A stretch of 22,925 bases of DNA from Candidatus Iainarchaeum sp. (GCA_043816965.1 JBDRHK010000074.1:1-22925), one strand, 5' to 3'. Shown: positions 6,157 to 21,628, counted from the stretch's first letter. The notes: a model not told the origin generated them from the letters alone. Made by a program: numbers and translations.

Positions 6157-6324
6157 CGGGGCATCAACCTCCAAACCAAAATTCTGCACGAAATTTCATT
6201 TTAATTTCACTATTATATATCACTTCTTTATAGTCTATTTAATTATAACGGTTTTAACCATAGAACAAATAATATTGGCAAAATAGGGCAGTTTTTGGGG
6301 AATTTCTGCTAGTTTTTATTATGT

Positions 6325-7431
6325 TCAGGGCAAGATATAAATCTGATTATTATTGCCTATCTCCTTCAGAAGTTCTTCGGCTTCTTTCCTCATTTCTCCA
6401 AACCAAAATTTTTCTTCTTCCGCATTGTAAGATGGTTCTACCTGAACAAGTTCAAGCATAAATTCAACAAAATCGCCACTGATTATATCTCCCTGTTCTT
6501 TAGGCAGGCTAATCGGCATCAGCTTTCTTGAAATTTTTTTTAAGTAAAACCATAAAGTATCTCGGTTTTTGTGTATTACACTTTGTGTTCCTTCCTCATA
6601 TAAATCAGGAATATCTTTCCCCTCACTTAATTTGCTGAGGAACGGGGAAAGAACCACTTCTTTGTAAACATCTGTTTGTGAAATAACTGTTGTTAATAAC
6701 ATAAAAAATTTGTCTTCGTCTTTAACAAAACCCCTGAAATTTTCCAATCGCTCATTTTCATCACTAAAAGGCGTATCAAATACCTCGCTCAATTTTTTGT
6801 CATATAACCACGTTCTAAAACAAGGATTTGCATGCAAGTTCAATAATTCTTCAGATGGTTTTCTTGAAGGATGATTTTTGTATATGCTTGATAAGTCAAC
6901 ATAGTAGTAGACTGGAGTGTTTTTGTCTAAATCTATTTTTTCGACCAGCTCTCCTTTATCATAAGACATTCGTTTTATTATCTCAAATCTTTGCCGATTC
7001 ATGAAATGCTGAAACTGATTCAATGAAGAAATGCTTTTTACACCCAGTATTTTTTTCAAGTTCTCGGCAGAAACAGGTTTGAAAAAACACTCAGTAAAAA
7101 TAGCAGAATAATTTTTGTTTCTTTGAATTTTGTGAATTAGTTTGAATAAATTTTTAAAATAATTAACCTGGGTTTCTTTTTTAAATTTTAATTTATTGGA
7201 TTCAAAGAAGTCTTTAAATTTTTTGGGTTCTTCTTCCCTATAGTTTAATCTGTTGACATGATACCCTATAGTGTTTAAAGAAGGGGGCTCTAGCTCAGGA
7301 TATTTTTGCCTAAACCAATTTTGTATTTGACGATAAGTTTTATCTTTGCTCATCTTTCGAATTTCCTGAATATCGTCATTATCCAGCCGTAAAATGTTTC
7401 CTTTAACATTATTTCTTTTAATGGTTTTCAT
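6325..7431 (-). CDS. Hypothetical protein with N-terminal HTH-like region; candidate repressor
   Basis: 368-aa ORF. KTYRQIQNWFRQKYPELEPPSLNTIGYHV resembles a helix-turn-helix. It is transcribed divergently from the replication operon. Confidence 0.6.
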   Translation of the reverse strand: MKTIKRNNVKGNILRLDNDDIQEIRKMSKDKTYRQIQNWFRQKYPELEPPSLNTIGYHVNRLNYREEEPKKFKDFFESNKLKFKKETQVNYFKNLFKLIHKIQRNKNYSAIFTECFFKPVSAENLKKILGVKSISSLNQFQHFMNRQRFEIIKRMSYDKGELVEKIDLDKNTPVYYYVDLSSIYKNHPSRKPSEELLNLHANPCFRTWLYDKKLSEVFDTPFSDENERLENFRGFVKDEDKFFMLLTTVISQTDVYKEVVLSPFLSKLSEGKDIPDLYEEGTQSVIHKNRDTLWFYLKKISRKLMPISLPKEQGDIISGDFVEFMLELVQVEPSYNAEEEKFWFGEMRKEAEELLKEIGNNNQIYILP

Positions 7432-7475
7432 ATTAAAATAATTATTATAAAAAGGTTTATAAACATATTTATTTT
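7432..7475. promoter_or_regulatory. Overlapping divergent BRE/TATA promoters
   Basis: A 44-bp AT-rich gap between divergent ATGs contains TTATAAA-aagg-TTTATAA (7445-7462). The plus strand reads AAAGGTTTATAAA and the minus strand reads AAACCTTTTTATAA. Confidence 0.6.
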
Positions 7476-7664
7476 ATGAAAAAAGAAAATTCCGAAAGAA
7501 GGACACAGATTTGCCAGAAATGTAGGTTTCTCTGGAATCCAAGGATAGAAGAACCTAAAGTATGTCCTCGTTGCCATGCTGATTGGAGAGTGCCATACAA
7601 AATTGGTGCAGGGGTAAAGAAATATTGGCAAAGAGAAGCCCCAGTGCAAGAGGTGAAAGCATGA
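7476..7664 (+). CDS. Small Zn-finger protein of the type seen in archaeal viruses/plasmids (CxxC..WxPR..CPxC...W)
   Basis: CQKCRFLWNPR...VCPRCHADW. Confidence 0.75.
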   Translation: MKKENSERRTQICQKCRFLWNPRIEEPKVCPRCHADWRVPYKIGAGVKKYWQREAPVQEVKA

Positions 7665-7873
7665 CCTACACGCCTCAGAGATGTAGCCAGTGTTCCCAGA
7701 TAATCCGAGATGAAGATTACTTCGCGTCTAGGAAAATCGATTTGTATGCTAAATTAATTGATGACCTACTTGAACGGGTCGACTCCAAATTAAAAGGCCC
7801 GAAAGCCCTTGACCCTAGAGCAAAGCTTGAGGCAGTGAAGAAAGAAATTGAGGCATTATTGCTGGAGACGTGA
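7661..7873 (+). CDS. Small hypothetical protein (CxxC plus coiled coil)
   Basis: ATG 7661 overlaps the upstream stop (ATGA) and follows GAGGTGA. The protein begins MTYTPQRCSQC. Confidence 0.65.
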   Translation: MTYTPQRCSQCSQIIRDEDYFASRKIDLYAKLIDDLLERVDSKLKGPKALDPRAKLEAVKKEIEALLLET

Positions 7874-7977
7874 TTTGGCAGGGAATAATCAAAAACACAG
7901 GAAAAAAAAAATAATTACGTTTGTTGCCTCTTTGGCAGAAAATTGGAGATGGTAAGAATGAATGGAGATGGTAAAAG

Positions 7978-8184
7978 ATGGAAAGACAGGAATTGGAATT
8001 GTTTTTGAAAAAAACAGTTAAAATTACAAAGATAACATCTGAAGGAAATATGCGTTTTTTCACTGGTGTGATAAAACAGCTTAGTATTGACAATCTAATT
8101 TTAGTGGATAAGTATGACCAATTGGTCATGATTAAATACAACCACATTGAACACATTCAAACAGTTGGCGGTGGTCTGCAATGA
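7978..8184 (+). CDS. Small Sm/LSm-like (SH3-barrel) protein
   Basis: 68 aa with the pattern FLKKTVKI...FTGVIKQL...LILVD...VMIKYNHIEHI, resembling the Sm1/Sm2 motifs. It has an ATGA overlap with the helicase gene. Confidence 0.55.
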   Translation: MERQELELFLKKTVKITKITSEGNMRFFTGVIKQLSIDNLILVDKYDQLVMIKYNHIEHIQTVGGGLQ

Positions 8185-9275
8185 CTGTTAATTACGCATT
8201 TAACAATGCTACTGATTCACAGAAAACTCAAATGAAAAAGAATTATAGACAATTGAAAGACCAAGAAACGATTTCAGTGGGAGATTTACTCGACACTGAT
8301 ATCCCTCCACAAGAATGGATTATTGAGGGGCTGGTGGATGATGAAGGAATGGACATCATTGCGGGACGACCTAAAGATTTTAAATCAGGGTTTATTTTAT
8401 CTGCGTGCATCCACATAGCGATTGGTAGACCATTCATGGGACTAAAGGTCAAAAAATTGAGAACCTTAATTGTTGATGAGGAAAATGGAATAAGGCGAAC
8501 CGACAGGCGGTTGGAGAAACTCATTTTAGCTATGAAACTAACTCCTGAAGAAATAACCGATTTGCGAAAAAACCTAGGATTTTCTATTTGGAAGGGGATA
8601 CAAGTTACTTCTCCTGAAGGAATACAAAAATTAGAGGCATTAATTGTCAAACACAAACCAAAATTTATCGTAGTGGATAGTTTGGTGAGAGTTATGACAG
8701 GGAAAGAAAATGATGTCGGAGATGCTAGGAAAGTATTTCATAACATCAAGCCACTTTTTACACAATATGGTGTCAAATTTCAGTTTGTACACCACACACG
8801 CAAAAATGGCTATGCAAGAGTAACTGTTGAGGATGTCCGAGGAAGTGGTGATTTCATTGGGCAAGTGAACCAGCTTCTTGTGATGAATAGGGATGGAAAA
8901 ACTGAAAATGGAGTACAATTTTTCAATATTTTCTCAGGAGTCGACAGAGATTTTTATGTGAATCGTGCTTACGGAATAAAATTCAAGATATATGATAAGC
9001 TTTTTGAGGACAAAACAGGGCTTGTTGTTGAAAGAATTGGGGAGATGCAAGAGGGCGAAGTTCCGAATAAAGCAGATAAAGTGCCAGATTTATGTGAAAA
9101 AGATGTATTGAAATGGGCAGAAGAAGAAGAAAGAGCTGTGCTGACAAGTGAGTTTGTTGATAAATTCAAGGAAAAATATGCCCAAACATCAGTGGAAAAG
9201 GCTTTGAGTGTTTTAACGAAAGAAGGAAAGCTGATTAGACCACGCCAAGGGAGGTACATTGCGGTGAGGGATTAG
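8181..9275 (+). CDS. AAA_25/RepA-like RecA-fold replicative helicase with C-terminal wHTH
   Basis: EWIIEGL, Walker A variant AGRPKDFKS, LIVDEE, Walker B FIVVDSL, VHHTRK, RGSGDF, and a C-terminal SVEKALSVLTKEGKLIRPRQGRY wHTH. Confidence 0.85.
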   Translation: MTVNYAFNNATDSQKTQMKKNYRQLKDQETISVGDLLDTDIPPQEWIIEGLVDDEGMDIIAGRPKDFKSGFILSACIHIAIGRPFMGLKVKKLRTLIVDEENGIRRTDRRLEKLILAMKLTPEEITDLRKNLGFSIWKGIQVTSPEGIQKLEALIVKHKPKFIVVDSLVRVMTGKENDVGDARKVFHNIKPLFTQYGVKFQFVHHTRKNGYARVTVEDVRGSGDFIGQVNQLLVMNRDGKTENGVQFFNIFSGVDRDFYVNRAYGIKFKIYDKLFEDKTGLVVERIGEMQEGEVPNKADKVPDLCEKDVLKWAEEEERAVLTSEFVDKFKEKYAQTSVEKALSVLTKEGKLIRPRQGRYIAVRD

Positions 9276-9292
9276 GGCGAAAACTGGCTGTT

Positions 9293-9483
9293 CAAACCCA
9301 TAAAAACCATAAATTGCTTAAGAGATTATGGAAAATATGGGTTTGGATTTGCTACCATTTCAGGGTGGATATGCCCCCAATTTAAGATTGGGGGGCTATA
9401 AAACCACTCCTGAAAGGTTATGAGTCCTTTTTTCCATAAAACCCATAAAAAAGGGAAATATGGAAATTATGGGTTTGAGTTTG
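9293..9483. repeat. Cluster of three palindromic units with CCATA/TATGG iterons; putative replication origin
   Basis: 9293-9312 CAAACCCATAAAAACCATAA is inverted against 9326-9345 TTATGGAAAATATGGGTTTG (16/20). A long imperfect hairpin spans ~9354-9419 with core CCCCCAAT-ttaag-ATTGGGGG. A second CCATA x2 / TATGG x2 unit lies at 9432-9483. The cluster sits immediately after the helicase gene. Confidence 0.65.
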
Positions 9484-9589
9484 GTGGCAAACACTAAAAT
9501 CAAACTAAAAAAAGAGGCCTTCCCCCCAAGAGACCGAGAATATTTTACACTTACAGAATTTGAAAACAGGAAACAAAGAGGTGAAGAAA

Positions 9590-9928
9590 ATGGACATAAA
9601 AAACGAAAAGGAAATCTATAAATGTTTGAACTGCGGAGAAAGGGCAGCCACAGTCGACACCAGAAGGAGTTTCTGCCCAAAGTGCAAGGCAAAGGAGAAA
9701 GTGGATTCAGGCATAGTAGAGGAGAAAAGAGCACCGTCTGCCCCCTCAGAATTTGTTGTTCTCGAAATGCTCGACATAGGACGGAAAAACTGGTGCGCGT
9801 CTGATTTAGGGCTTTATTGGGAAACCCCAGGCACACGCCAAAAAACTCTCCAAAGAAACCTAAGAGAGGCCGACATTGCACTGGGCATTAAGAGAGGAAT
9901 TTTGAAGGTTGTCGAAGGAGATGATTGA
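9590..9928 (+). CDS. Zn-ribbon protein
   Basis: ATG 9590 follows GAGGTGA. Contains YKCLNCG...FCPKC. Confidence 0.7.
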   Translation: MDIKNEKEIYKCLNCGERAATVDTRRSFCPKCKAKEKVDSGIVEEKRAPSAPSEFVVLEMLDIGRKNWCASDLGLYWETPGTRQKTLQRNLREADIALGIKRGILKVVEGDD

Positions 9929-10148
9929 TACTATGCCTAAAGACCTAACCCTTTTGTGGAAAGTCGTTGAAGCTAACAAAAACAAATGGCTTTCCGCCTC
10001 GGAGTTTTTCAATGAATCTGACAGGCTTAAAACGGGCAATCACAATCCCTTTGGGAGTTATAATTCGGTTTGTCAATGCCTGCGAGGGATGGGTCTGCAT
10101 AGAAGGGCAAAATACACAACTGGGCAAATGGAGTATTATTGCCCGTAA
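9921..10148 (+). CDS. Small hypothetical protein, possibly wHTH DNA-binding
   Basis: Overlaps the upstream stop, with ATG at 9921 or 9933. KWLSASEF...SVCQCLRGMGL...EYY pattern. Confidence 0.6.
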   Translation: MIDTMPKDLTLLWKVVEANKNKWLSASEFFNESDRLKTGNHNPFGSYNSVCQCLRGMGLHRRAKYTTGQMEYYCP

Positions 10149-10174
10149 GGAAATAAAGTGTGGAGGTGCGAAAA

Positions 10175-10243
10175 ATGAAATGGTTTATAACAGTAGCAAT
10201 CGTTCAATTAATAGTCATAGTGGTTTTGATTGCACTGATATAA
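10175..10243 (+). CDS. 22-aa hydrophobic micropeptide MKWFITVAIVQLIVIVVLIALI
   Basis: Strong GGAGGTG RBS, ATG 10175, TAA 10241-10243. Its first 29 nt are 26/29 identical to the start of the lipoprotein gene at 15346. Confidence 0.65.
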   Translation: MKWFITVAIVQLIVIVVLIALI

Positions 10244-10461
10244 GTGAAAACACATTTTACGGGTTGGTTTAAGGAAAATTGGTATATACCTTTTCCCCTA
10301 TATAATACCAGAGTTAGATACCCTATTGAGAAACAATAAACCACTATAAGCCATCTTTATACGACCTTCAACAAATTAAAATCCCTTATTGTGGGTTTAG
10401 TTCAAACGAGGATTTTTTCACTAATCTTTCTCAGGCATCTAGGTGATTTATTAACCTCATA

Positions 10462-10495
10462 AAATAAAAAATTTATTAGAAATAAAAAATTTATT
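10462..10495. promoter_or_regulatory. Tandem 16-bp repeat of palindromic AATAAA-N3-TTTATT; candidate RHH operator
   Basis: AAATAAAAAATTTATT occurs at 10462-10477 and 10480-10495, directly upstream of the RHH gene. Confidence 0.5.
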
Positions 10496-10509
10496 TAGGG
10501 AGTGAGTAA

Positions 10510-10848
10510 ATGGAAGAAGAGAATTTAGGGGAAAAAATAACAACTACCATCAGGCTGAATAAATCAACTGACCAGCTATTAGATGATTTTGCTAAGGAAA
10601 GGGGAAGCACCCGAAGCGAGATTATCGAATCTGCAATTCGCATACTCTTCAAAGTGGCAAAAGAAGACAGCGATTCTGTAGGTGTCGAATTGGACTTATC
10701 CAGTTGTTTAGCCGAGCAGAAAAAACTTCTTTTAGAAATACATTCCGCAGTTCACAGGGAACAAAATTTACTTCACGAAAGGAGAACGGCTCTTGCACAA
10801 TCGCAGGCAAGAAGAGATGCAGCTCTAGAACAGGAAAAACAGCGATAA
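10510..10848 (+). CDS. Ribbon-helix-helix (CopG-like) regulator with C-terminal coiled coil
   Basis: TTTIRLNKSTDQLLDDFAKERGSTRSEIIESAIR is a canonical RHH pattern. Confidence 0.85.
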   Translation: MEEENLGEKITTTIRLNKSTDQLLDDFAKERGSTRSEIIESAIRILFKVAKEDSDSVGVELDLSSCLAEQKKLLLEIHSAVHREQNLLHERRTALAQSQARRDAALEQEKQR

Positions 10849-10863
10849 GGAAGTTGAGATGAA

Positions 10864-12339
10864 ATGGCAGAAGATGCAAAACTCAAAGTCAAGATAGAAT
10901 TAGACGACCGAGAATTTAGAAAGAAGGTCAAGGATTTAAAGAAAGGCACTACTGTAAAAATGGGTGCTGGTGGAAGTGATGCGTCAGTTAAACTTAAAGA
11001 AAAACTTTCATCTGGTGGAAGTATATTAGACACAATCAAAAATGCGTTCGGAGGAATGAAAGGAGCAGTTGCAGGCGGTGCTTCTGGAGCAGCAGCAGGT
11101 GGTGCGGGTGCGGCTGGAGGAGCAATCGCAGGAGGAGCGGTTGCTGGATTAGCTGGTGGAGCAGTCCTTGGCGTTTTGGGAATAATTGCATCAGCAGTTA
11201 CAACACTTCTTGGTCTAATATTAGAATCCAGTGGAATACTAAAAAATTCAATTGGAAATCTCCTCAAAGTAATAATGTTGATTCTCCGACCAATTGGGGA
11301 TATATTTGGAAGTATGTTAAAACCATTGATTTGGGTCCTACTGCCAATGGCAAAAATGATTAACCTGCTATTCAAACCTTTTCTCTTGTCTTATCGAAAA
11401 AGGTTAATGGAAGAAAAGCAAAAAGGTTCTTACGACTTTACAAGCGAAAACTTTGACCCATTCGGAGCAAATCTACGCTCAGGGGTCGGCGCATTAGCAG
11501 ACTGGGGAGCATTTTTGTTCTCAGTAGGATTAGAACAACTATTACTCGGAATCACTTCTGCCTTGGCTGAACTCGCAAGGACAATTGTAAACATTTCAGC
11601 GGACACACTAATAATGTTACTAAACGCATTCAAACTTCTTGGCAATAGTTTTTATGATATTATAGAAGCAATGACTCCTTTCAAAGGCATTACTGATGGA
11701 GTGAGGGGAACCTTCAACAATCTCATGGATAGTCTGATTATTGGAGTGGATTCAATGAGAAACAATTCCATAGCCACAATAAATAAATGGGAAGTAGATG
11801 CAAAATTTTTAATTGTAAGTGCGTTTGACCTTATGGAAAAAGCATTCGCAGAAGGATTAGATGCATTACTAACACAAGTACAGGCTTTCAAAAATGCACT
11901 GATGAATATTCCAATCAGAAATGGTGGTGGCGGACCGCGTGTTCCAGCAACTAATGCAATTACGCCTATGGCGAAGATATATGGTGCAACTGGTGCAGAA
12001 ATGGATATATATTCAAAACTTCGAGAAGATGCTTATCAGAACATGAACCAAAAAGCGGATATGTCTATCCCAAGAGAAGCATTTGCGAAACTAGGGTTCC
12101 CAAGCCAACAAGTTGGTTCATCATACATTCCAGAAACGGGCAATTATATGCTTCATAGAGGAGAACAAGTATTGCGAGCTAATGAATCAAAAGAACAAGG
12201 CGTTAATATAGTTCAAAATTTCAATGTTAGTGCAAAAATTGATGGCAGATTGGATTTGAGAAAACTTGTTGATGAAATGTCGGACTTAATGACACTAAAC
12301 CTGCAATCAGAATTAAGAAGAAGGGTGAGTTATACATGA
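10864..12339 (+). CDS. Tape-measure-like protein
   Basis: N-terminal LKVKIELDD, a Gly/Ala-rich stretch, hydrophobic and amphipathic helices, and a C-terminal GSSYIPETGNYMLHRGEQVL motif followed by VNIVQNFNV, as in tail tape measure proteins. Confidence 0.7.
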   Translation: MAEDAKLKVKIELDDREFRKKVKDLKKGTTVKMGAGGSDASVKLKEKLSSGGSILDTIKNAFGGMKGAVAGGASGAAAGGAGAAGGAIAGGAVAGLAGGAVLGVLGIIASAVTTLLGLILESSGILKNSIGNLLKVIMLILRPIGDIFGSMLKPLIWVLLPMAKMINLLFKPFLLSYRKRLMEEKQKGSYDFTSENFDPFGANLRSGVGALADWGAFLFSVGLEQLLLGITSALAELARTIVNISADTLIMLLNAFKLLGNSFYDIIEAMTPFKGITDGVRGTFNNLMDSLIIGVDSMRNNSIATINKWEVDAKFLIVSAFDLMEKAFAEGLDALLTQVQAFKNALMNIPIRNGGGGPRVPATNAITPMAKIYGATGAEMDIYSKLREDAYQNMNQKADMSIPREAFAKLGFPSQQVGSSYIPETGNYMLHRGEQVLRANESKEQGVNIVQNFNVSAKIDGRLDLRKLVDEMSDLMTLNLQSELRRRVSYT

Positions 12340-12414
12340 CGGACAGGCGTCATATTCATTGAAATTGGTAGAGGGAAAACTTAGTTAAAATAAAAAGGAT
12401 TGAGGTGATGAAAA

Positions 12415-12795
12415 ATGGCAGTTCCATTTAATTCAAGTACGAGAGGTGTGTTGCAATATACACTCACAGCATCTAATGATACCACTGGTGCGTCTGATGC
12501 TTTAACAGATGACATATTATTTGGTATGTTGGTTGGTGTAAGATTCCTCAATGGTACAAATACAGCAAACAATTGGGATGTAACTCTTAGAGATGCAGAT
12601 GGTTTGCAGATTTATACTGGCTCTTCGATAAATAGTGCTGACTCACATGCAAACAATTTTGTTGTTCCATCAATAGCGGGAACGAACTCAACAAATACAG
12701 AATTCACTTATCCAGTAAGCGGACAGTTATCGGTAAGTATTGCGAATGCGAGTGCAAGTAGTGCTCCACAAGTGAGATTTTACCTAAGACAATAA
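12415..12795 (+). CDS. Small beta-rich protein, probable virion structural protein (jelly-roll-like)
   Basis: 126 aa, rich in S/T/N/A/G, with alternating beta-strand patterns (LVGVRF, WDVTLRD, LSVSIAN, VRFYL), no signal peptide, and a GAGGTGA RBS. Confidence 0.6.
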   Translation: MAVPFNSSTRGVLQYTLTASNDTTGASDALTDDILFGMLVGVRFLNGTNTANNWDVTLRDADGLQIYTGSSINSADSHANNFVVPSIAGTNSTNTEFTYPVSGQLSVSIANASASSAPQVRFYLRQ

Positions 12796-12822
12796 AATTA
12801 CAAAGAGGAATGAGGTGATGAG

Positions 12823-13350
12823 ATGAAATACCATAAATCAGGAGAAGAATTTCGTTTTAGGTTGGAAAAAGCCCAACAGGAAGATGATGATAAAACATTG
12901 ATGAAGATTTCCTCAATGAATCCATCTGATTTGTTGGATTTGAGCGAAGCGGAAATTGAAAGGAGATTGAAAATCCTTCAAAATCGTCTCAATGAATTAA
13001 GGGGAGGCGAAACTGCCCAAGAGGAAGAAAGTTTAGAATGCGTAACTCAACAAGAAGAGGACGATACTTTAGAAGAAATCGAGAAGATGGATGCAATAAG
13101 GCGGGTAAAAGACGGCAAGATGAGAGAGGAATTAATGCAAAAAGGCGATGCCACTCCTCAAGACACAATCCTTAGACGACAAAACGAAGCAGAATATCAA
13201 AAAAAGATTGAGGCATTGGAAAAATCTTACGGCCATGAAAAAGCTGCTAGATTAAGAAGAGGCTTTGAAAGAGCAGAATTGATTGGCAGTGCAGGGGCAT
13301 TGTCGAGAGCCTATGAGAAGGCACTCAAAACATTCCCTTACCCAATATGA
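12823..13350 (+). CDS. Acidic coiled-coil protein (scaffold-like, function unknown)
   Basis: 175 aa, E/D/K/R-rich and helical, with a GAGGTGA RBS. Confidence 0.7.
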   Translation: MKYHKSGEEFRFRLEKAQQEDDDKTLMKISSMNPSDLLDLSEAEIERRLKILQNRLNELRGGETAQEEESLECVTQQEEDDTLEEIEKMDAIRRVKDGKMREELMQKGDATPQDTILRRQNEAEYQKKIEALEKSYGHEKAARLRRGFERAELIGSAGALSRAYEKALKTFPYPI

Positions 13351-13421
13351 CGCTTAACAGACATGTGTTAAGAAAAATTGCTGAGACAAACCATTATCTC
13401 ACTTCGGCGAAACGGCGAAAA

Positions 13422-13477
13422 ATTGTGTGGAGGGAAGAAAAAGGGGTTCGCACTCCTACCCTCCCCCTCCACACAAT
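13422..13477. other. Strong hairpin upstream of the TerS-like gene
   Basis: A perfect 13-bp stem, ATTGTGTGGAGGG (13422-13434) with CCCTCCACACAAT (13465-13477), encloses the inner hairpin AGGGGT-tcgc-ACTCCT. Confidence 0.7.
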
Positions 13478-13492
13478 ATGGCTGGTGAAAAA

Positions 13493-13924
13493 ATGGAAAA
13501 GAACGGTTACAAAAATACTCCCCATAGGTTTAGTCTGGCTGACCAAATTAAAGGCGGACAAGCAAAGAGTTTGAGAAAGACATTAGCTGTCAGACTGAAT
13601 CCAATGAAAAACCCATCTACACTAAAAAGAGAACTGGAAGAAGTCCTTGACAAAAACCTTAACGCTGACGCATTGAAAAATATTCTGCGTTTAGCCAATG
13701 AGAAAAATGGTCAGATTTTAATTGACGAAATGGTTGAGGTATTGATTGAAATGAAAAAGATTGTTTCTGATGAACCTACATTGGCAAAATATGATTTATA
13801 CTTAAAAAGATTAATTGACTTCAAAACTGCGATTTGGGGAACAAAGCTCATAGTCGAAACCAATGAAGATACACTACTTCACAAAGAATTTCTTGAGAGG
13901 CTAAAAGTCGTAGAGGTTGATTGA
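13493..13924 (+). CDS. Putative terminase small subunit-like protein
   Basis: ATG 13493 follows GGTGA. The N-terminal F...DQIKGGQAKS..K motif, helical core and C-terminal WGTKLIVE beta-tail are reminiscent of TerS. The assignment is tentative. Confidence 0.45.
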   Translation: MEKNGYKNTPHRFSLADQIKGGQAKSLRKTLAVRLNPMKNPSTLKRELEEVLDKNLNADALKNILRLANEKNGQILIDEMVEVLIEMKKIVSDEPTLAKYDLYLKRLIDFKTAIWGTKLIVETNEDTLLHKEFLERLKVVEVD

Positions 13925-14020
13925 ATGACCGACAAACAAATCAAAATTCAATTGGGCAAAATCCGAGAATTAAAGGAAATTATTTATTCAATGAATCCTA
14001 ACCGAGGTGATGCATATTGA
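13925..14020 (+). CDS. 31-aa hypothetical peptide MTDKQIKIQLGKIRELKEIIYSMNPNRGDAY
   Basis: The ATG directly follows the upstream stop, and its stop overlaps the next TTG start. Confidence 0.4.
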   Translation: MTDKQIKIQLGKIRELKEIIYSMNPNRGDAY

Positions 14021-14214
14021 CACAAATTTTTCATACAATATTCAAAGACAAAAGTAAAATACTAAATTCAGAAATCCCGAGTGAAACAAAAGCAGAACTC
14101 GTTCTAACCAATGAAAAAGGTGAAACACGACTAAGCTTTGATTGTGTAGAGGCTTTTTACCTGGGGAAACAGGAAGACATCATAAAGAATCTCTTACCTT
14201 TGGAGAAGAAATAA
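14017..14214 (+). CDS. Small hypothetical protein
   Basis: TTG start preceded by GAGGTGA. It is the last gene of the plus-strand operon. Confidence 0.55.
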   Translation: MTQIFHTIFKDKSKILNSEIPSETKAELVLTNEKGETRLSFDCVEAFYLGKQEDIIKNLLPLEKK

Positions 14215-14338
14215 TAATCACAGGCGTTAGGTTATTGTTTCCCAATAGGGTAATGAACAAGTGGGTTGTATTGGAGGAAAGGTATAACCGTTTGACCTCA
14301 TTTCAAGAGTTTATTAAGATAAGCTAAAAATGAAATAA

Positions 14339-15346
14339 TTAGTTTTGTTTTAGTATTTGGATAGCAATGGTACATTTTACTTCGTCATAACTTCCTTGCT
14401 GGTAACCGCAATCAAAATATACAGTTCCTGAGGTAACTTCTTCTGAAACATTTTCCAACAAAATAAACCCTCTTTTGGTTATTCCTGGATATATCTCCCC
14501 GCTTTCTATTGCGCCCGAGTAACTAGAAAAATAATCTGCTTTACTTTGATTTTTTAAATTATCAATGAATACAATGCTTGATGGGAAAAAGTACCTCTCT
14601 TTGTCTGTAATATTAGTAACCTCTAAATCTAACCTAAGTTTTGTTTCCTCGTCGCCAAAACTATACGCCTTACCTGTGAACCAACCAATCTGTTTGATTG
14701 TTATTAGAAAATATCCTTTTTGGTCACTTTTGTCAATTGTGACTGCTGATTTTTGGTATAGTTCTTCATAAATCTCTTGTAGTTCTTCTTTTGATTTTTC
14801 TGGAATTCCAAATAAACTTGTTTCTATTTTTTCAAATGTTATTCCGCTATCTGTTTCAAATGTTAAATATAAAGTCCCTGTACTTCCAGCAGTAGATTTT
14901 TCAATTTCTTCTTCAAAAATTTCTCCTGCCCAAATAAGTCGCTCTATTTGAGTTATTCCAATAGTAGTGTCAAAAAAATCTGATTTTTTTACATTGAAAG
15001 AATTTGAATAAACTTTTTTGCCTTCTTTATCTTCAATTTCAACTAATGCTGTTCCGTTTGTAGATATTTCATTTTTAGACGCATCAAGAAAGCTAAAATA
15101 AAATCTGATACAATCTTTTCCTCCGCAAGTATCAGTGTAGGCAATAAGACCATAAATCCAATCAGGTTTTGGTGCTAAATCCTTGACAATTGTATCAGGG
15201 GCATTTTGTGTTCCTATTTCTTGATTATCCGTTTTTGGATTTTGTTCTTGTGAAATATCCGTTATTGGTTGATTATCTGAATCAGTGGTTACGCACCCAC
15301 CCAAAAGAATTAAACTTACTATTGCTATTGTTATCAACCATTTCAT
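14339..15346 (-). CDS. Lipoprotein with C-terminal DUF4352-like Ig domain
   Basis: Lipobox LLGG-C. The C-terminal LDLEVTNITD...FIDNLKNQ...GEIYPGITKRGFILLE matches the DUF4352 pattern. Confidence 0.75.
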   Translation of the reverse strand: MKWLITIAIVSLILLGGCVTTDSDNQPITDISQEQNPKTDNQEIGTQNAPDTIVKDLAPKPDWIYGLIAYTDTCGGKDCIRFYFSFLDASKNEISTNGTALVEIEDKEGKKVYSNSFNVKKSDFFDTTIGITQIERLIWAGEIFEEEIEKSTAGSTGTLYLTFETDSGITFEKIETSLFGIPEKSKEELQEIYEELYQKSAVTIDKSDQKGYFLITIKQIGWFTGKAYSFGDEETKLRLDLEVTNITDKERYFFPSSIVFIDNLKNQSKADYFSSYSGAIESGEIYPGITKRGFILLENVSEEVTSGTVYFDCGYQQGSYDEVKCTIAIQILKQN

Positions 15347-15569
15347 CCTAAAACCCTTTTAAAACTATTAATTTTTAATACGGAAAAGTGTTTAAATGGG
15401 CGTTTAAGCAGAAAAAACCAAGGCAAACAATAGGACACAATAAAGAATATTAATGCTTCAAGTGTAAAACAATAATCCCTTATAGCGGGTTATTGTTTAT
15501 CTAAACCACTATGTTCTTGTAGGGTGTTTTTATGGAAAGGGTTAGTAATAATGGTAATTTAACAGAATT

Positions 15570-15626
15570 TCAAAAAGCAATCAAAAGGATTAAACTTACC
15601 AATACTATTCCAATCAGCCACTTCAT
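15570..15626 (-). CDS. 18-aa hydrophobic micropeptide MKWLIGIVLVSLILLIAF
   Basis: ATG 15626 follows AAAGGGG, and TGA is at 15572-15570. The upstream region and codons closely resemble those of the lipoprotein start at 15346 (GTAAGTTTAATyCTTTTG, 17/18). Confidence 0.6.
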   Translation of the reverse strand: MKWLIGIVLVSLILLIAF

Positions 15627-15681
15627 TTCAAAGCCCCTTTAATGTTAATTTTAATGTAAACAAATGTAAAAGATGTTATCC

Positions 15682-16455
15682 TTATTCAATCGTAGTGTAG
15701 GTAATTATATAATCCTCAGGTTCATCAGAATATCCATCACTATAATATAAGCGTTCTTTGTTCATAGTTTCGGGGATTTCAAAAACCAAATTGTAATCAC
15801 TGACTTCAGTAGGCGCTAAACACCCCTTGTCAAGAAGATAATAATGCTGAACAGAAAATCTCCTATCTTCATCATCTTTTAGGTTAAAGCTTCCAGATAA
15901 ACTATTAATGCATTCTGCTTTTTTTCCAAGGTTCGTTATTGTAACTTCTGCTACAAACCATTTCCATCCTTCTTTAGCTGTCCTACTCCAACGACTGTAT
16001 GTTGCGGCTTCGCCCAACTCAATCGCCAAAGAACGACCAATTATTGTTTTATCAGGGTATTTTTCTTGCAAGAGTTCTTTATCAGTTTTATAACCACACT
16101 CAACACTATTTTCTTCTCTTGCTGTTTCCGAAACACACTCATCATTCTTACAGTAAAAAGTCTCGATTACTTTTGTTGTTCCCTCACAATAAGAACCGTT
16201 TTTTGCTTCACAAATAGCGGGGTTGCATTTTGGTTCTGGTTCACTAACTTGCTCTTGCAGAATAGGTTCAGTTGTCGGGTTTTCTAATTCGAGCAGACAT
16301 TCCTGTTTTTGTGAAACATCATTTATTCCTTCACAGATAAAAGGGTCATTGTTCTCAATAGCAATCCTATAATAATCATCATCTGTAAAATCAGTTGTAG
16401 GGCAACCACTAAAAAGAATTAAACCTGCTAAAATTATTGCAATTAACCACTTCAT
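15682..16455 (-). CDS. Lipoprotein with Cys-rich region and C-terminal DUF4352-like domain
   Basis: Lipobox LFSG-C, AKEGWKWFVAEVTITNLGK...FNLKDDEDRRF...LAP...LVFEIP. Confidence 0.75.
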   Translation of the reverse strand: MKWLIAIILAGLILFSGCPTTDFTDDDYYRIAIENNDPFICEGINDVSQKQECLLELENPTTEPILQEQVSEPEPKCNPAICEAKNGSYCEGTTKVIETFYCKNDECVSETAREENSVECGYKTDKELLQEKYPDKTIIGRSLAIELGEAATYSRWSRTAKEGWKWFVAEVTITNLGKKAECINSLSGSFNLKDDEDRRFSVQHYYLLDKGCLAPTEVSDYNLVFEIPETMNKERLYYSDGYSDEPEDYIITYTTIE

Positions 16456-16565
16456 TTTCTCATCTTCTAAAATTTATTAAATATTTTTATAATAAAGGTT
16501 ATTTATAATTAATGTTAGGCAACTGTTACGCTAATTTATAGCCAAAAGTTACGCATCCTTTTTCT

Positions 16566-16817
16566 ATGAGTAAGTATGATTTGATTGCATCAGTTCGGAG
16601 AAGTAAAATCAAATTAGAAATTTTGCGATTACTCGGAGAACCGAAAACGGCGACAGATTTAAAGAAAATAATAAGGGTGCATAGGGAAAGCATAAGTAGG
16701 GCGTTACTACAAATGAGTAGCCAAGGCTTGGTTGAATGTATTAATCCAAAACAGCCTAATTTTAGGTATTATAAAATAACTAAAGAAGGTCAAAAGATTA
16801 TGGCAAAACTAAGTTGA
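16566..16817 (+). CDS. Winged-helix (ArsR/MarR-like) transcription regulator
   Basis: ILRLLGEPKTATDL...ESISRALLQM...GLVEC...YYKITKEG. Confidence 0.85.
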   Translation: MSKYDLIASVRRSKIKLEILRLLGEPKTATDLKKIIRVHRESISRALLQMSSQGLVECINPKQPNFRYYKITKEGQKIMAKLS

Positions 16818-17002
16818 TTTATCAGTATCCTTCTCTTTCTTTTCATCAGGGAAAGGACAATCAACCACCCTCTTTTTTAACCTCTTCAACCCATTGGCCA
16901 TAGTCTATAACTCTTAAAGTTCTGTTAAAATCCTGCATCCCTTCTACTCCAAAAACTGCATTTAAAATGATTTTGTCGTCATTTATTTGAAGGGTGAACG
17001 AT

Positions 17003-18370
17003 ATGGACAAATCAAAACCCGAAAAAATTTCTTTAATGACTTTTGTGACTCTTTCTAGCATCATAGTAGCAATATTAGCTACTTATTTTGAATTATTTAA
17101 TACTCCTGTAGAAATAATAGAAGTATCTTTTATTCTGGTTTTTTTATTGTTCGGCACTATTATGGCGAAAAAATATAAAGTTGAACTCATAGAAGTGCTT
17201 AAGGGGTCTCTTATAGTTGGAACTGTTTGGCTTTTTACAGGGACAGCTGTTTCACTTGTGATTGTTGGAGGATCTTTACCTGAAGATATCGGAATCATAT
17301 GGGTCGGAGGAATTATTTTTAGCATCCTTTTTTCTAGAATTGGAGCACAATCAGTTTCAGAATTTGCTTTTGTAAAACCTTCAGCCTCCCCATCCCCTTC
17401 TAGTAAATCAAAAAATAGTCCTGGGACTCTATATGAAACTGACTCGAGACAATTACTCTTTCGTTTGGTTTTAAGTAAACCCGGAAAAAAAGATGAAACT
17501 TTTGAGGATACTGTCAAAATATTGCTGGACCAATTAAAAGAGACAGGCTTGTCCAAGGATACAGAAATGAAAGAGGGATTACATGAAAGCGATAACTTTA
17601 CCCTGTTTGAGTTGTTTTTCCGTTCAGACATGCCTGAAGAAGTTAAAATGCAATATGATTTGTTCAAGAAAAATTTCCAGCTCATGTTGCTAAAAAACAA
17701 AAAATATAAAGGATACGATTTATCAAACACCGCATATTACACCCTAAACGAGTCTGAAAAAACGATTCCTATCAAGTTGGATGAAATTATTTTCAAAATA
17801 AATCTAGGAATAGGCGGCACTGGGATGACAGTCCATCACGAGAATATGCCCAAAGAAATTAAATTTGAGAAATTTATTGAAACAGTCAATAAAGACATGG
17901 GGACTAAATATTATGTCAATCTGTATTTGAGATACTATGCTTCGGAGTTAAACGAATCTTTTTACACTTTGATTAAGGATGTGAACAAATATCTTGCATC
18001 AAAAAAGCTTATTATCGAATCATTCGACATGCAAGATGTGAAAAAACGGTATAAAGATGCTCAACAAGAATGTGTGGATAATTTTAGCTCAGATTTGGGC
18101 GAAAAATTTAAACAAAAAGGCATTGACGATGGCAGCGAAAAAGAAATCGCAAAAGAAGTTGTGGAAAAAGGGTTCACTAAAATCAATATCTTTAATAGGG
18201 ATATAGAAGGCATAGAACTGAAAAAGTTTGAGAAAATTCAAGAAGAACTTTTTAAGAACATTCCTTCCGAAGAATTTGGCTTCGAGTACGACATTGTAAT
18301 TACAACCTTCACAGTTGCGATATCAAGATATGGCTGCTATACTCTCTTTAAACCACCGAAAATTGAATAA
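17003..18370 (+). CDS. Membrane protein with about four N-terminal TM helices, an S/P linker and a large soluble domain; function unknown
   Basis: ATG 17003 follows GGGTGA. Four hydrophobic segments lie in the first ~115 aa, followed by a PSASPSPSSKS linker. Confidence 0.75.
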   Translation: MDKSKPEKISLMTFVTLSSIIVAILATYFELFNTPVEIIEVSFILVFLLFGTIMAKKYKVELIEVLKGSLIVGTVWLFTGTAVSLVIVGGSLPEDIGIIWVGGIIFSILFSRIGAQSVSEFAFVKPSASPSPSSKSKNSPGTLYETDSRQLLFRLVLSKPGKKDETFEDTVKILLDQLKETGLSKDTEMKEGLHESDNFTLFELFFRSDMPEEVKMQYDLFKKNFQLMLLKNKKYKGYDLSNTAYYTLNESEKTIPIKLDEIIFKINLGIGGTGMTVHHENMPKEIKFEKFIETVNKDMGTKYYVNLYLRYYASELNESFYTLIKDVNKYLASKKLIIESFDMQDVKKRYKDAQQECVDNFSSDLGEKFKQKGIDDGSEKEIAKEVVEKGFTKINIFNRDIEGIELKKFEKIQEELFKNIPSEEFGFEYDIVITTFTVAISRYGCYTLFKPPKIE

Positions 18371-18406
18371 ATATTTGAATACTACTTCTGCAAATCATTC
18401 CGCAAA

Positions 18407-19867
18407 TCACCTCGCCTTCAATCTCTGCAACATTTGTTGTGTACTCAATTCAGGTCTATTCCTAATATCATCTAAAAGGATTAGCAATCTTTCCTCAATC
18501 TCTTTTTCCTTTTGGTCTAAATCCCTTTCCTTCATCACGGTTTTAATTGATAGGGGAGCTCCGCATCTGATACAATATTCTCTTGTGGAATGATTCTCTG
18601 CCGTGCAAATCTCGCAAGTTAAGATATTCAACAAAGGCTTGGCTTCCATCTCCTTCTTCAAGCCCAAGGGCTTTAATAATTTGTTTGTCAAGTGGCTGTT
18701 GCTTAGATGGGTGTAAATTGCAGAGGTATTGGAGGCATCACTCCACCCACCAAATTTGTTTAACTCCAGATTGTTTAAATTTTTATCAATCAGATTAGTT
18801 ATTCTGCTGTGGCGCAGCAAGTGAACAAAAACGTGTTTTTTAATCCCTGCCTTTTTTGCCGTCTTTTTAACAATACTCAATATGCTGGTTGCCCTAATGG
18901 GATAATTCCTGAACTTATTTTTATAAGTCCCAATCGGAACAAACAAAGCAATGTCTGGCTCATCTTTTGCAGGATGCCATTGTAGCCATTGGCGAATAAG
19001 CGGAGCGGATGTAATAAAGGGAAGCGTTCTTTCGCCTGTCTTTCCGCTTACAGTTACCTGATATATTTGAGGGTATTCTGGATGAGGAATCAAACTCCCA
19101 ATGGTTAGATTTGTCAATTCCGAGACCCTCAGTCCGCCTTCCCAAGTCATCGAAATTATGCACTTGTCCCTTGGGTTTTCAGCCGCCTCAATCATTTGCT
19201 TTATTTCTTTTTCTGATAAGATATCCTCCCAATTAACTTTTTTTGGGCCTTGCCTAATCTTTATCCATGAAACACTCTCTGGCGCTGTGCCTTTATTCAG
19301 CCATTTAAAAAAAGTTTTAATAGGGGTGATTGACCCATTGTATGAATGAACTGAATATTTTTTTGAGGTATTAACTGTCGGAACCTCTGCGTTTTTATCC
19401 ATCACAAGAGAGACCCTTGTCCCATCCTTTTTCCTGCTAAACCCTTCATAATTTTCAATGAGTTTATTGATTAATTCCCATGCAAAGCTGTCACTACATT
19501 TCAAAACACGCTTCATTTCGGTGATTGAAATTTTCTTATTTGATTTAAGCAAGGCTAATAATTTGTTAAATTTTGTATTAACCTTAAAACTCCCATTTAG
19601 CATATTTCTACAATATTCCGACATATCCTTTTTAGTCAAATCAATAAATGGGGTATCAGGGTATTCCTTTGAAAGCCTCTTAATAGACTGGACAAAACTG
19701 ATATTAGAATGGGGCGAAAAGCCATTCAATTCTCTTTCATTGAGATATTCAACTACCTTGTCTTTGTTTTCTTGCAGGAAAGGCTCTTCCAGATAACTTT
19801 GTCTATAATTTGCATATTGGTTCTGCAATTTTTGTAACACTATCGGATTTATTTTTGCTCCAACCAC
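18407..19867 (-). CDS. Tyrosine recombinase/integrase with C-terminal Zn ribbon (SNJ2-like architecture)
   Basis: Catalytic motifs GLRVSEL, GKTG, HLLRHS, GW and IYTHL. C-terminal CEIC...CIRCG. Confidence 0.92.
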   Translation of the reverse strand: MVGAKINPIVLQKLQNQYANYRQSYLEEPFLQENKDKVVEYLNERELNGFSPHSNISFVQSIKRLSKEYPDTPFIDLTKKDMSEYCRNMLNGSFKVNTKFNKLLALLKSNKKISITEMKRVLKCSDSFAWELINKLIENYEGFSRKKDGTRVSLVMDKNAEVPTVNTSKKYSVHSYNGSITPIKTFFKWLNKGTAPESVSWIKIRQGPKKVNWEDILSEKEIKQMIEAAENPRDKCIISMTWEGGLRVSELTNLTIGSLIPHPEYPQIYQVTVSGKTGERTLPFITSAPLIRQWLQWHPAKDEPDIALFVPIGTYKNKFRNYPIRATSILSIVKKTAKKAGIKKHVFVHLLRHSRITNLIDKNLNNLELNKFGGWSDASNTSAIYTHLSNSHLTNKLLKPLGLKKEMEAKPLLNILTCEICTAENHSTREYCIRCGAPLSIKTVMKERDLDQKEKEIEERLLILLDDIRNRPELSTQQMLQRLKAR

Positions 19868-19920
19868 ATTTAATATTATAAATAAAAACCTTTTTAAATA
19901 TTATTAAAAATTAGTTTAAT

Positions 19921-19947
19921 GGTAATATATTATTTAAATATATTGCC
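19921..19947. repeat. Inverted repeat around a 7-bp spacer; candidate recombination (att) core
   Basis: GGTAATATAT-TATTTAA-ATATATTGCC (arms 9/10 inverted), just upstream of the integrase. TATTTAAwTATA recurs at 6236-6247. Confidence 0.4.
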
Positions 19948-20136: not shown

Positions 20137-20355
20137 TTATTTCAAAAATTTCAGGAATTTGTTTTTGTCCATTTTGAGGTCTTGCTTGATTATCTTTGTC
20201 AGCAGTTTGATTCTGATTTCTTTATGCAGAGGAATTATTGTCGTCCTCCCATCTGAATGTTCAAAGAAAATGTGAGAGCCTTTTTGCCGGATTTCCTCAA
20301 AACCCAAATTGCGCAGTGCACTAATTACTTTGCGCGTTTTAACAGAACTAAGCAT
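20137..20355 (-). CDS. hicA: HicA-family mRNA interferase toxin
   Basis: LGFEEIRQKGSHIFF...TTIIPLH. ATG 20355 overlaps the end of hicB. Confidence 0.9.
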   Translation of the reverse strand: MLSSVKTRKVISALRNLGFEEIRQKGSHIFFEHSDGRTTIIPLHKEIRIKLLTKIIKQDLKMDKNKFLKFLK

Positions 20356-20572
20356 GCACCAAAACCTTTTCCACGCTGACAAAAGGAGTTTTCTTTTTAA
20401 GTTTGTTCTCTTTATGCACTTCCAAATAAAGCTCTATAGCCTCTTTAATATTTTTCAGTGCCTCCTTTTTGGTTTTTCCCTGGGTATGGCACCCAGGTAG
20501 CGCGGGAACATCTACAATAAACCAGCCGTCCTTGTCCTTTTCAATTACAACATCGAACTTTCTTTCATTCAT
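20348..20572 (-). CDS. hicB: HicB-family antitoxin (short form, no DNA-binding domain)
   Basis: VDVPALPGCHTQGKTKKEALKNIKEAIELYLE, with a GGTGA RBS and an AAAGCTTTTATTTA promoter upstream. Confidence 0.9.
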   Translation of the reverse strand: MNERKFDVVIEKDKDGWFIVDVPALPGCHTQGKTKKEALKNIKEAIELYLEVHKENKLKKKTPFVSVEKVLVHA

Positions 20573-20631
20573 TTTTTCACCTGATTATATATGGGTTTAT
20601 CATAAATAAAAGCTTTTGGTTATGTAGAAAT

Positions 20632-21216
20632 CTATTTTTTTCTTTTCCATGGCCGGTTGCGTTTCTCTTTCTTTGGTTTTGTTTCAGCAGGTTTTCCCTG
20701 AATCTTTTTCGGTTGCTTCTGCACTTCGGGTTGCACAGGGAAAATAGGTTCAGGCCATTTCAGAACCCTGGCAGATTTACCGTGAATTTCCACTTTTCCT
20801 TGCCCCATAGCATTCCTAAATTTTCTATCTACTTCTGGTTCTGTGCCCCACCAACTAAAACCGCTTTTGCTGTGCCTCTTCAGAGTTTGAAGCAGTAGCT
20901 CTGTAGCCATTGAATGCTTTTTGAAAATAGGATCGTAGCTGTAGGGTCTGTGAGTTGCCATAAACTTAATGAATAAGTTATTTGGGTTTCCCCTATCGCG
21001 ACCGTAGATAATATAGCCAGCTACCTCCTCACCATGCAAAAGTATGCCAAAATTGCTAGCAAACAAAGAAGTCTGCATACTTGGATTTTCCTTACTTCGT
21101 CCGGAAACTATATGTCGAAATGTTATGTCTTCATGTTTGTCAAAAGAACCACGTAGATCATGCATCTGAGAGACAGTCAATATTTCGTCGCACTTCTGGC
21201 CCTTCTCAGCAAACAC
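20632..21216 (-). CDS. Hypothetical protein, possibly GNAT-fold, with a basic low-complexity tail
   Basis: VAGYIIY...LFIKFMAT...FKKHSMATELL resembles GNAT motif A. The start codon is uncertain. Confidence 0.5.
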   Translation of the reverse strand: MFAEKGQKCDEILTVSQMHDLRGSFDKHEDITFRHIVSGRSKENPSMQTSLFASNFGILLHGEEVAGYIIYGRDRGNPNNLFIKFMATHRPYSYDPIFKKHSMATELLLQTLKRHSKSGFSWWGTEPEVDRKFRNAMGQGKVEIHGKSARVLKWPEPIFPVQPEVQKQPKKIQGKPAETKPKKEKRNRPWKRKK

Positions 21217-21274
21217 AAGCTTGAACTGTTCTGCCGTAATAATAGATAAAACCGGGGAAATATATTAAGTTTTC

Positions 21275-21628
21275 CTAAACCTTCCAGCTCAATTTATCCC
21301 CGATTTTAATTCCTTTCCCCTTCCCCTGCGGCAATTCAATCAGAAATTTCGCCGCCTTTTTCGGCGTGTAGTTCAGCAACCATGGCTGAACTGTCGCAAC
21401 ATCAACAACCTTTTTCCCAGAATCAAGGTACACAACATCTATCGGGAAGAAAACAAACAGCATGTGGATGCTTGCGCCAATTTTCGCCTCTCCCGCAAAT
21501 TCGAAAACCAGCCCATAATCAAACCTATCCTTCCGTTCAAACATCAAGCCCTTTAACTTAAGGAAATAATTATCCGCAAATTTCAGATTCCCAATCACTT
21601 CAGAATTAGTGGATTCGTTTCTCAGCAT
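21275..21628 (-). CDS. DUF192 family protein
   Basis: ADNYFLKLKGLMF...IHMLFVFFPIDVVYLD...LIELPQG. Confidence 0.88.
   Translation of the reverse strand: MLRNESTNSEVIGNLKFADNYFLKLKGLMFERKDRFDYGLVFEFAGEAKIGASIHMLFVFFPIDVVYLDSGKKVVDVATVQPWLLNYTPKKAAKFLIELPQGKGKGIKIGDKLSWKV

Follow-up and report, generated by a model that had tools for sequence, protein, structure and literature searches.

Two hydrophobic micro-ORFs (ORF, open reading frame), here called mini1 and mini2, lie in an integrated virus-like element of Candidatus Iainarchaeum sp. (GCA_043816965.1 JBDRHK010000074.1:1-22925), and on balance we regard them as probable relics of the turnover of a lipoprotein "moron," without a selected role of their own. 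The whole 22,925-nt stretch that was analyzed is referred to as the window. A previous reading of this DNA from sequence only had listed four frames that begin with Met-Lys-Trp (MKW) and continue into a hydrophobic stretch, and direct reading finds all four where they had been placed: mini1 and mini2, which stop soon after this stretch, and two full-length lipoprotein genes, lipoA and lipoB (Table 1). All four fall within the integrated element and are part of its cargo. As the homologies set out below are best read, each micro-ORF is the head and the tail of a lipoB-like unit from which a body of ~1 kb is missing.

The Micro-ORFs Carry the Heads of Lipoprotein Genes

When the first 39 nt of the frames are aligned without gaps, the nearest relatives share 31 (mini1 and lipoB), 30 (mini2 and lipoB), 30 (mini2 and lipoA), and 29 (lipoA and lipoB) positions, while the two lower pairs share 24 (mini1 and mini2) and 23 (mini1 and lipoA). 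The best identity outside the family, from a comparison of the 730 ATG-started 39-mers of the window with each of the four heads, is 22. Because the nearest-relative pairs reach 29–31 of 39 against a background maximum of 22, the likeness of the heads at the DNA level is far above chance and is not the generic likeness of one signal peptide to another. The identity of 26/29 nt that had been reported between the starts at 10175 and 15346 is correct. Upstream, the ~27 nt preceding mini2 are homologous to the region upstream of lipoB, as part of a repeat of 61 nt (77%), and each of the three minus-strand heads has AT-rich, TATA-like DNA on its upstream side. The GGAGGTG assigned to mini1 as a ribosome-binding site is likewise there, and other plus-strand genes of the element are preceded by similar GAGGTGA motifs.

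All four frames encode M-K-W followed by 12–18 hydrophobic residues, which is the arrangement of a charged n-region and the hydrophobic core of a signal peptide. The lipobox Cys is found in lipoA (LFSGC) and lipoB (LLGGC); in mini1 and mini2, which end after 22 and 18 codons, respectively, there is no Cys. The corresponding C-terminal regions read SLILLGG before the Cys in lipoB, GLILFSG before the Cys in lipoA, SLILLIAF before the stop in mini2, and VVLIALI before the stop in mini1. Lengthening of the mini frames by read-through or by another genetic code was rejected, as more stops follow within a few codons. In the 1.34-Mb genome, 108 frames start with M-K-W, and beyond the four described here only 2 have a hydrophobic continuation, the first of which is an unrelated 396-aa lipoprotein on contig C101. 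The second, a 17-codon MKW frame on contig C66, was considered as a fifth member and rejected; it sits inside a 664-aa ORF of another frame. A pattern search for lipoprotein starts in the genome gave 27, all with L-x-[GAS]-C, and the presence of the Cys in 27/27 follows from the pattern, which itself demanded this motif.

The Micro-ORFs Also Carry the Tail of a lipoB-like Unit

Each micro-ORF is also accompanied by a 3′ tail of ~110–150 nt whose sequence is homologous to that following lipoB, and this homology begins 24–41 nt past the mini stop codons. Within the mini1 tail, a 55-nt core (10285-10339) is 75% complementary to 14232-14286. In local alignments the mini1 tail scores z 12.6 against the lipoB tail and z 9.1 against the mini2 tail, and the third pair gives z 8.4; for all three pairs, 0/1000 dinucleotide shuffles reach the score. 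Eight control downstream regions gave background scores against the tails not contained in them, the lipoA downstream control overlapping the mini2 tail and therefore matching that tail. An nhmmer profile built from the three tails finds only these 3 copies in the whole genome. LipoA has no tail of its own, and mini2 starts 55 nt past the lipoA stop. Since the tail homology adds to the head homology with lipoB, a reading of each micro-ORF as head plus tail, with the body removed, appears to us the correct one: the mark of a pseudogene or gene remnant is that the sequences flanking a lost segment both match a full-length gene, and this is how head and tail relate to lipoB. The sequence-only reading had named homologous loci that continue into full lipoproteins as a finding that would speak for recent pseudogenes, and lipoB, whose head and flank bracket a 1-kb body, comes close to being such a locus.

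The distal part of the tails points to how they may have arisen. A convergent gene, ORF65, has its 3′ end inside the lipoB tail, and decayed copies of this end are found in the mini2 tail and, more weakly, in the mini1 tail; where ORF65 reads GKQEDIIKN, the copy beside mini2 reads GKQ-stop-DTIKN and is thus interrupted by an in-frame stop. The repeat formed by 14159-14190 and 15417-15448 (75%) has a spacing of 1258 nt, about one gene unit. Because the distal tail is a decayed copy of ORF65 and this spacing is about one gene unit, the tails would fit a segmental duplication, and not a tidy cassette. Folding of the tails compared with shuffled sequence yielded no significant fold (z +0.8, −1.0, and −0.3). 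Structured RNA and integron attC-like palindromes were both rejected in the absence of a fold signal, a clear hairpin being present only in the mini2 tail. A G-segment-like invertible region between the two 55-nt inverted repeats was rejected as well, as inversion would join no head to a body; these repeats are merely the tails of two oppositely oriented units.

Table 1. Coordinates of the lipoprotein heads, bodies, and tails and of other features of the element (positions are those of the window, except in the last row, which gives contigs of the same genome)
Feature	Coordinates	Strand	Description
mini1	10175-10243	+	22-codon frame, MKWFITVAIVQLIVIVVLIALI then stop; head without body
mini2	15626-15570	-	18-codon frame, MKWLIGIVLVSLILLIAF then stop; head without body
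lipoB	15346-14339	-	335-aa lipoprotein, leader MKWLITIAIVSLILLGGC
lipoA	16455-15682	-	257-aa lipoprotein, leader MKWLIAIILAGLILFSGC, DUF4352 domain
Shine-Dalgarno-like GGAGGTG	10162-10168	+	6 nt 5′ of mini1 ATG; direct reading
mini1 tail	10285-10397	+	Homologous to DNA downstream of lipoB and of mini2
lipoB tail	14286-14159	-	3′ flank of full-length gene
mini2 tail	15540-15417	-	Holds 12-bp hairpin at about 15466-15498
ORF65	14017-14214	+	Convergent 65-codon ORF; 3′ end inside lipoB tail
Integrated virus-like element	6235-19942		~13.7 kb; imperfect 13-nt direct repeats at ends
ORF79	9909-10148	+	79-aa ORF just 5′ of mini1; C-terminus shorter than in the L012 homologue
RHH regulator gene	10510-10848	+	Ribbon-helix-helix (RHH); Pfam RHH_1
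491-aa protein gene	10864-12339	+	Gly/Ala-rich membrane protein, tape-measure-like; PHROG 1272 tape measure, E 2e-5
Tyrosine integrase	18407-19867	-	Pfam Phage_integrase 7e-22; PHROG integrase
Other head-family genes	C60 1020, 2287; C62 14606; C54 479, 1989 (starts)	-	Shared promoter-plus-leader modules

mini1 Is Absent From the Only Syntenic Relative

The only syntenic relative of the element is a contig, L012, of a Diapherotrites metagenome-assembled genome (G130) from the same order and another family. ORF79 is 35% identical (E 3e-11) to an 85-aa ORF of L012, the alignment stopping at YYCP, 13 residues before the L012 stop, and the RHH protein and the integrase are 51% and 26% identical to their L012 homologues. 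In L012 the ORF79 homologue is followed by the RHH gene after 70 nt, whereas the gap in the window is 361 nt and holds mini1 and its tail, both of which are absent from L012; the DNA alignment resumes from about 10436, in the RHH promoter region. Because of this difference between the gaps, mini1 is best regarded as an insertion, or as a loss in the relative, and not as a gene of the backbone. ORF79 is shortened exactly where the mini1 insertion begins (10137-10174 as compared with 6543-6597 of L012), and the mini1 Shine-Dalgarno motif may lie on DNA that once encoded the C-terminus of ORF79.

Extra DNA between genes that are adjacent in a related element is a mark of phage morons, and it is present at the mini1 site. 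Morons have been described as independent cargo units between conserved phage genes of temperate phages (PMC3594210), and many of the exclusion proteins that prophages encode, Ltp of phage TP-J34 among them, are described as surface lipoproteins (PMC3952083). The archaeal element resembles these accounts in that a unit present in one element is missing between the same two genes of its relative L012 (PMC3594210), and in that its cargo lies near the integrase, has a lower GC content, and consists of genes for surface lipoproteins, like Ltp (PMC3952083). It differs in that nothing more than a head and a tail has been inserted where mini1 lies, and in that the host is a DPANN archaeon.

Beyond L012, the searches for relatives of the short frames and of the element gave few matches. 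A degenerate leader pattern of 44 nt, with up to 3 mismatches, occurs in the micro-ORFs' own genome only among the 196 genomes of the order, where it matches lipoB, mini2, and lipoA; leader and tail DNA patterns have 0 matches in viral contigs, and mini1 matches 0 families of Pfam and NCBIfam at E up to 10. Neither the 491-aa protein, nor the AAA_25 protein, nor lipoA found a match in single-protein scans of the viral contigs; a scan of these contigs with the integrase returned 20 distant integrases, with 27–41% identity over the best aligned segment. A scan of genome contigs for relatives of the element returned L012 alone, a phylum-wide search with alignment gave matches in 6/215 genomes, only G130 being close, and the 126-aa protein of the element was not found in 5 candidate genomes. 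The short frames are not conserved in the one syntenic relative, in the 195 other genomes of the order, or in the viral contigs, and to that extent the lack of conservation that the sequence-only reading had set as a point against functional peptides is indeed observed.

Probable Relics of Lipoprotein Turnover

According to the reading we prefer, lipoprotein genes of one local paralogous family would lose the ~1-kb part that encodes the mature protein, and the micro-ORFs would be what remains. Such a remnant would keep the head, which comprises the start codon, the signal-peptide core and, in mini2, the promoter-proximal DNA as well, together with the tail from the 3′ flank. The lipoprotein family would be cargo of the element and behave in a moron-like manner, its units being duplicated, moved, and deleted. 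One possible course begins with the tandem segmental duplication of a tail-gene-head unit of ~1.26 kb, continues with an internal deletion in the duplicated unit, and ends with an inverted copy being set between the replication and the structural modules of the element; this order of events, like the lack of a selected function, is what we infer from the arrangement of the copies. Because the start signals survive, the micro-ORF frames may still be transcribed and translated. The micro-ORFs would then reflect ordinary gene turnover, and they counsel caution in that hydrophobic micro-ORFs beside lipoprotein genes can be relics of heads. A check for a matching 3′ flank separates such relics from new peptide genes.

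Several features weigh against this reading. Both frames run uninterrupted from the ATG to a stop at the very end of the hydrophobic stretch; a canonical, well-spaced GGAGGTG precedes mini1, and promoter-proximal DNA has been preserved at mini2. Both minis read TTTTGATTGC in the same frame, giving L-I-A where the lipoproteins have the lipobox; this common TTTTGATTGC and the LIA end had been noticed from the sequence alone, and the remark made there, that the pair does not give the impression of random truncations arising independently, retains its force. Moreover, the mini heads are nearer to lipoB (30–31/39) than to each other (24/39) despite the shared L-I-A, so that one deletion with subsequent copying would call for gene conversion at a later time, and two separate deletions for a coincidence; sequences this short cannot discriminate between the two courses. 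The piece lost from both minis extends from the lipobox nearly to the stop, in almost exact agreement with the segment that encodes the mature protein. Between the mini1 and lipoB heads, codon positions 1/2/3 account for 2/1/5 of the differences, which leans toward constraint, on numbers that are far too small for a test. Finally, the sole syntenic relative, in which mini1 is missing, is distant (44–51% protein identity).

Could the Micro-ORFs Be Selected Peptides?

In a rival reading, the element would express the micro-ORFs as signal-peptide-like membrane peptides that stand on their own and are under selection. By mimicking the leader peptides that lipoA and lipoB release, or by competing with these, they would act as a signal or as a processing decoy. 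We hold this to be unlikely, but not negligibly so. The minis sit on a mobile element, their start signals are intact, they have the LIA ending in common, and the host has an M50 site-2 protease; this last point is uninformative, as the M50 protease is found in all 14 control genomes. The closest parallel comes from Enterococcus faecalis, where, in the account given in PMC7117660, a pheromone is formed by the final 7–8 residues of the signal peptide of a lipoprotein, immediately ahead of the lipobox Cys, and a plasmid encodes a short signal-peptide-like precursor that ends in a competing hydrophobic peptide. The minis share with the pairs cCF10/iCF10 and cAD1/iAD1 described there a short signal-peptide-like frame without a lipobox Cys on a mobile element, and their anatomy resembles that of the inhibitor precursors, which end directly past the hydrophobic stretch (PMC7117660). 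As far as anatomy alone goes, lipoprotein leaders with a related hydrophobic end also lie near the minis.

The parallel is incomplete in several respects. No receptor or regulator of the required kind was recognized among the 19 ORFs scanned (~6.3–21.2 kb, 18 of them in the element), the neighbors being a small winged-helix protein and a protein of 458 aa for which 4 membrane helices are predicted and which gave no TPR/RRNPP-like match; no receptor/regulator pair was found, and the host is an archaeon. The lipoproteins and the minis are on the same element, unlike the enterococcal arrangement, in which they are split between chromosome and plasmid. To this may be added the lack of conservation in L012, the viral contigs, and the genomes of the order, and the decayed gene debris carried by the mini tails. 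A more specific form of the proposal, in which the provirus keeps head-only frames as peptides, as an archaeal counterpart of pheromone and inhibitor or as a processing decoy, with L-I-A under selection, we rate as distinctly improbable. Should the peptides turn out to be functional, no free-standing peptides of this signal-peptide-like kind would have been described before them from a mobile element in archaea.

Type I toxins of the Ibs class are similar in size and hydrophobicity to the single-helix minis of 18–22 codons. A role of the micro-ORFs as membrane-damaging peptides of a type I toxin-like or holin-like kind, restrained by an antisense RNA, is nevertheless very improbable. The TATA-like plus-strand motif at 15383-15397, which had been proposed to drive an antisense transcript toward mini2, is present, reads GAAAAGTGTTTAAAT, and does point toward mini2, but it is just as much the palindromic TATA region that belongs to the DNA upstream of lipoB. 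There is no match in Pfam or NCBIfam for mini1 and no Rfam match on either strand near the minis, and neither promoter-like sites (26, as compared with 20.7 ± 4.3 in shuffles) nor terminator-like sites (4, as compared with 4.9 ± 2.5) are enriched, in consensus scans that were built for bacteria and were applied here to an archaeal host. Thus, the minis resemble the Ibs/Sib toxins as hydrophobic single-helix frames, and differ from them in that no antisense RNA gene, family match, or conservation (in the viral contigs or the 196 genomes of the order) was found and in that their origin as lipoprotein leaders is clear. Of the three options that the sequence-only reading had put forward, the remnant of an exchange of lipoprotein bodies is the one that gains, the head and the tail bracketing a missing lipoB-like body, and nothing supports the toxin.

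Shared Heads on Unrelated Lipoproteins

Exchange of bodies leads to a further alternative, in which the head (promoter and signal peptide) and the tail are recombination flanks between which bodies are exchanged, inserted, and excised, the minis being empty sites or by-products. For example, the order head-lipoA-head-tail could result from a single crossover of a circular head-plus-body piece into a head-tail unit; or lipoB could be moved from one expression context to another through its own head and the inverted one of mini1, in the manner of the Vpma/Vsp/Vsa lipoproteins of Mycoplasma. We consider this alternative unlikely. LipoA and lipoB share only residues 1–22, that is, the leader and C-x-T-T-D, and their bodies are unrelated. 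LipoB finds only itself in a search of 5.8 billion proteins; in a search of whole genomes, 6/196 genomes of the order match, its own included. The best match is a lipoprotein of genome G133 (369 aa; locus L004, G133:C63, 1048-2157, minus strand), which stands in tandem with another lipoprotein gene. Its residues 1–220 align with lipoB 1–203 at 34% identity, and lipoB residues 45–203 alone are 34% identical to it; its residues 1–58, a cysteine-rich N-module, resemble lipoA (52%), so that a lipoA-like N-module and a lipoB-like middle are combined in one mosaic protein.

The genome of the window contains two other head families, with 3 genes starting MKKFLLIS and 2 genes starting MK[LF]RLFG. Their members share ~100 nt, from −44/−35 to the lipobox, at 80–89% DNA identity, on bodies with little or no similarity, and large secreted proteins of the same genome also show shared 5′ ends. 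Together, these observations suggest that the leaders are younger than the bodies behind them, through recombination or conversion at the heads. Promoter-plus-signal-peptide modules of such identity on otherwise unrelated lipoprotein genes are a hint of recombination at leaders.

Two properties of the element itself would also suit recombination flanks: the mini1 and lipoB heads form an inverted repeat of 38 nt (82%), and a tyrosine recombinase is encoded 2 kb from lipoA. In Mycoplasma, as described in PMC2268961, variable lipoproteins of the Vpma/Vsp/Vsa type are switched by inversion through a neighboring tyrosine recombinase, and the Vpma/Vsp families have conserved 5′ untranslated and signal-peptide regions with an adjacent recombinase. 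The archaeal element shares with that account the conserved 5′ region and signal peptide on divergent bodies and the tyrosine recombinase nearby (PMC2268961), and one of its heads is in inverted orientation. However, whereas silent bodies are switched onto one promoter in the systems described there, the surplus here is of heads and not of bodies, every head comes with a separate upstream region, and the recombinase is the integrase of the element, with att repeats of its own. In addition, head identities of 60–80% are low for recent homologous exchange, the tails have no significant fold and resemble gene debris, the rest of the genome contains neither silent cassettes of bodies nor additional heads or tails, and no orphan heads were found for the two other head families.

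The Integrated Element and Its Surroundings

The element that carries the lipoprotein genes and their presumed relics has clean boundaries, marked by att repeats and by an empty site; little is known of the mobile elements of its host, a DPANN (Iainarchaeota/Diapherotrites-like) archaeon. The repeats at its ends read CTATTTAATTATA (6235-6247) and TTATTTAAATATA (19930-19942), and a junction alignment with genome G001, from the same genus, reveals the empty site, window position ~6247 being joined straight to ~19930. The GC content of the element is 0.36, as compared with 0.40–0.43 in the flanks; it is lowest in the lipoprotein cluster (0.326) and is 0.385 in the remainder, the replication and structural part. 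In addition to the genes of Table 1, the element encodes an AAA_25 primase/helicase-like protein, a zinc-ribbon protein, and several small ORFs. No capsid, portal, or terminase genes are recognizable in it.

The 491-aa tape-measure-like protein served as the hallmark in the hunt for relatives of the element. Relatives of this protein are encoded on three virus-like metagenome contigs, with 43–72% identity over the matched stretch and, for two of the three contigs, 43–50% over the full length. These contigs have another gene order, many further ORFs, and no MKW frames. One of them also carries a gene 70% identical to the 126-aa gene of the element; the replication genes of the element are unrelated to those of L012. 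By gene content the element therefore appears small, mosaic, and provirus-like, and it is possibly defective, because the further genes of the virus-like contigs are missing from it. Within the 491-aa gene there is a Gly/Ala-rich, imperfectly repeated 30-nt stretch (11061-11164). In a provirus-like locus of another genome (L002, G002:C4), a distant tape-measure-like gene is immediately followed, in antisense orientation, by a 139-aa lipoprotein gene (1734-2153, minus strand); elements of this sort may recurrently carry lipoprotein cargo.

Outside the element, a second stretch of the window is without a counterpart in G001: it spans ~1.1 kb (20144-21281) and includes a 194-codon ORF on the minus strand (20632-21216), with flanks on both sides that match G001 at 84–89%. 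At the other end of the window, a frame on the minus strand (3-1310) that leaves the window end encodes a T2SSE ATPase of the type II/IV secretion family with an N-terminal 4Fe-4S ferredoxin-type domain, and this gene adjoins one for a KaiC-like ATPase.

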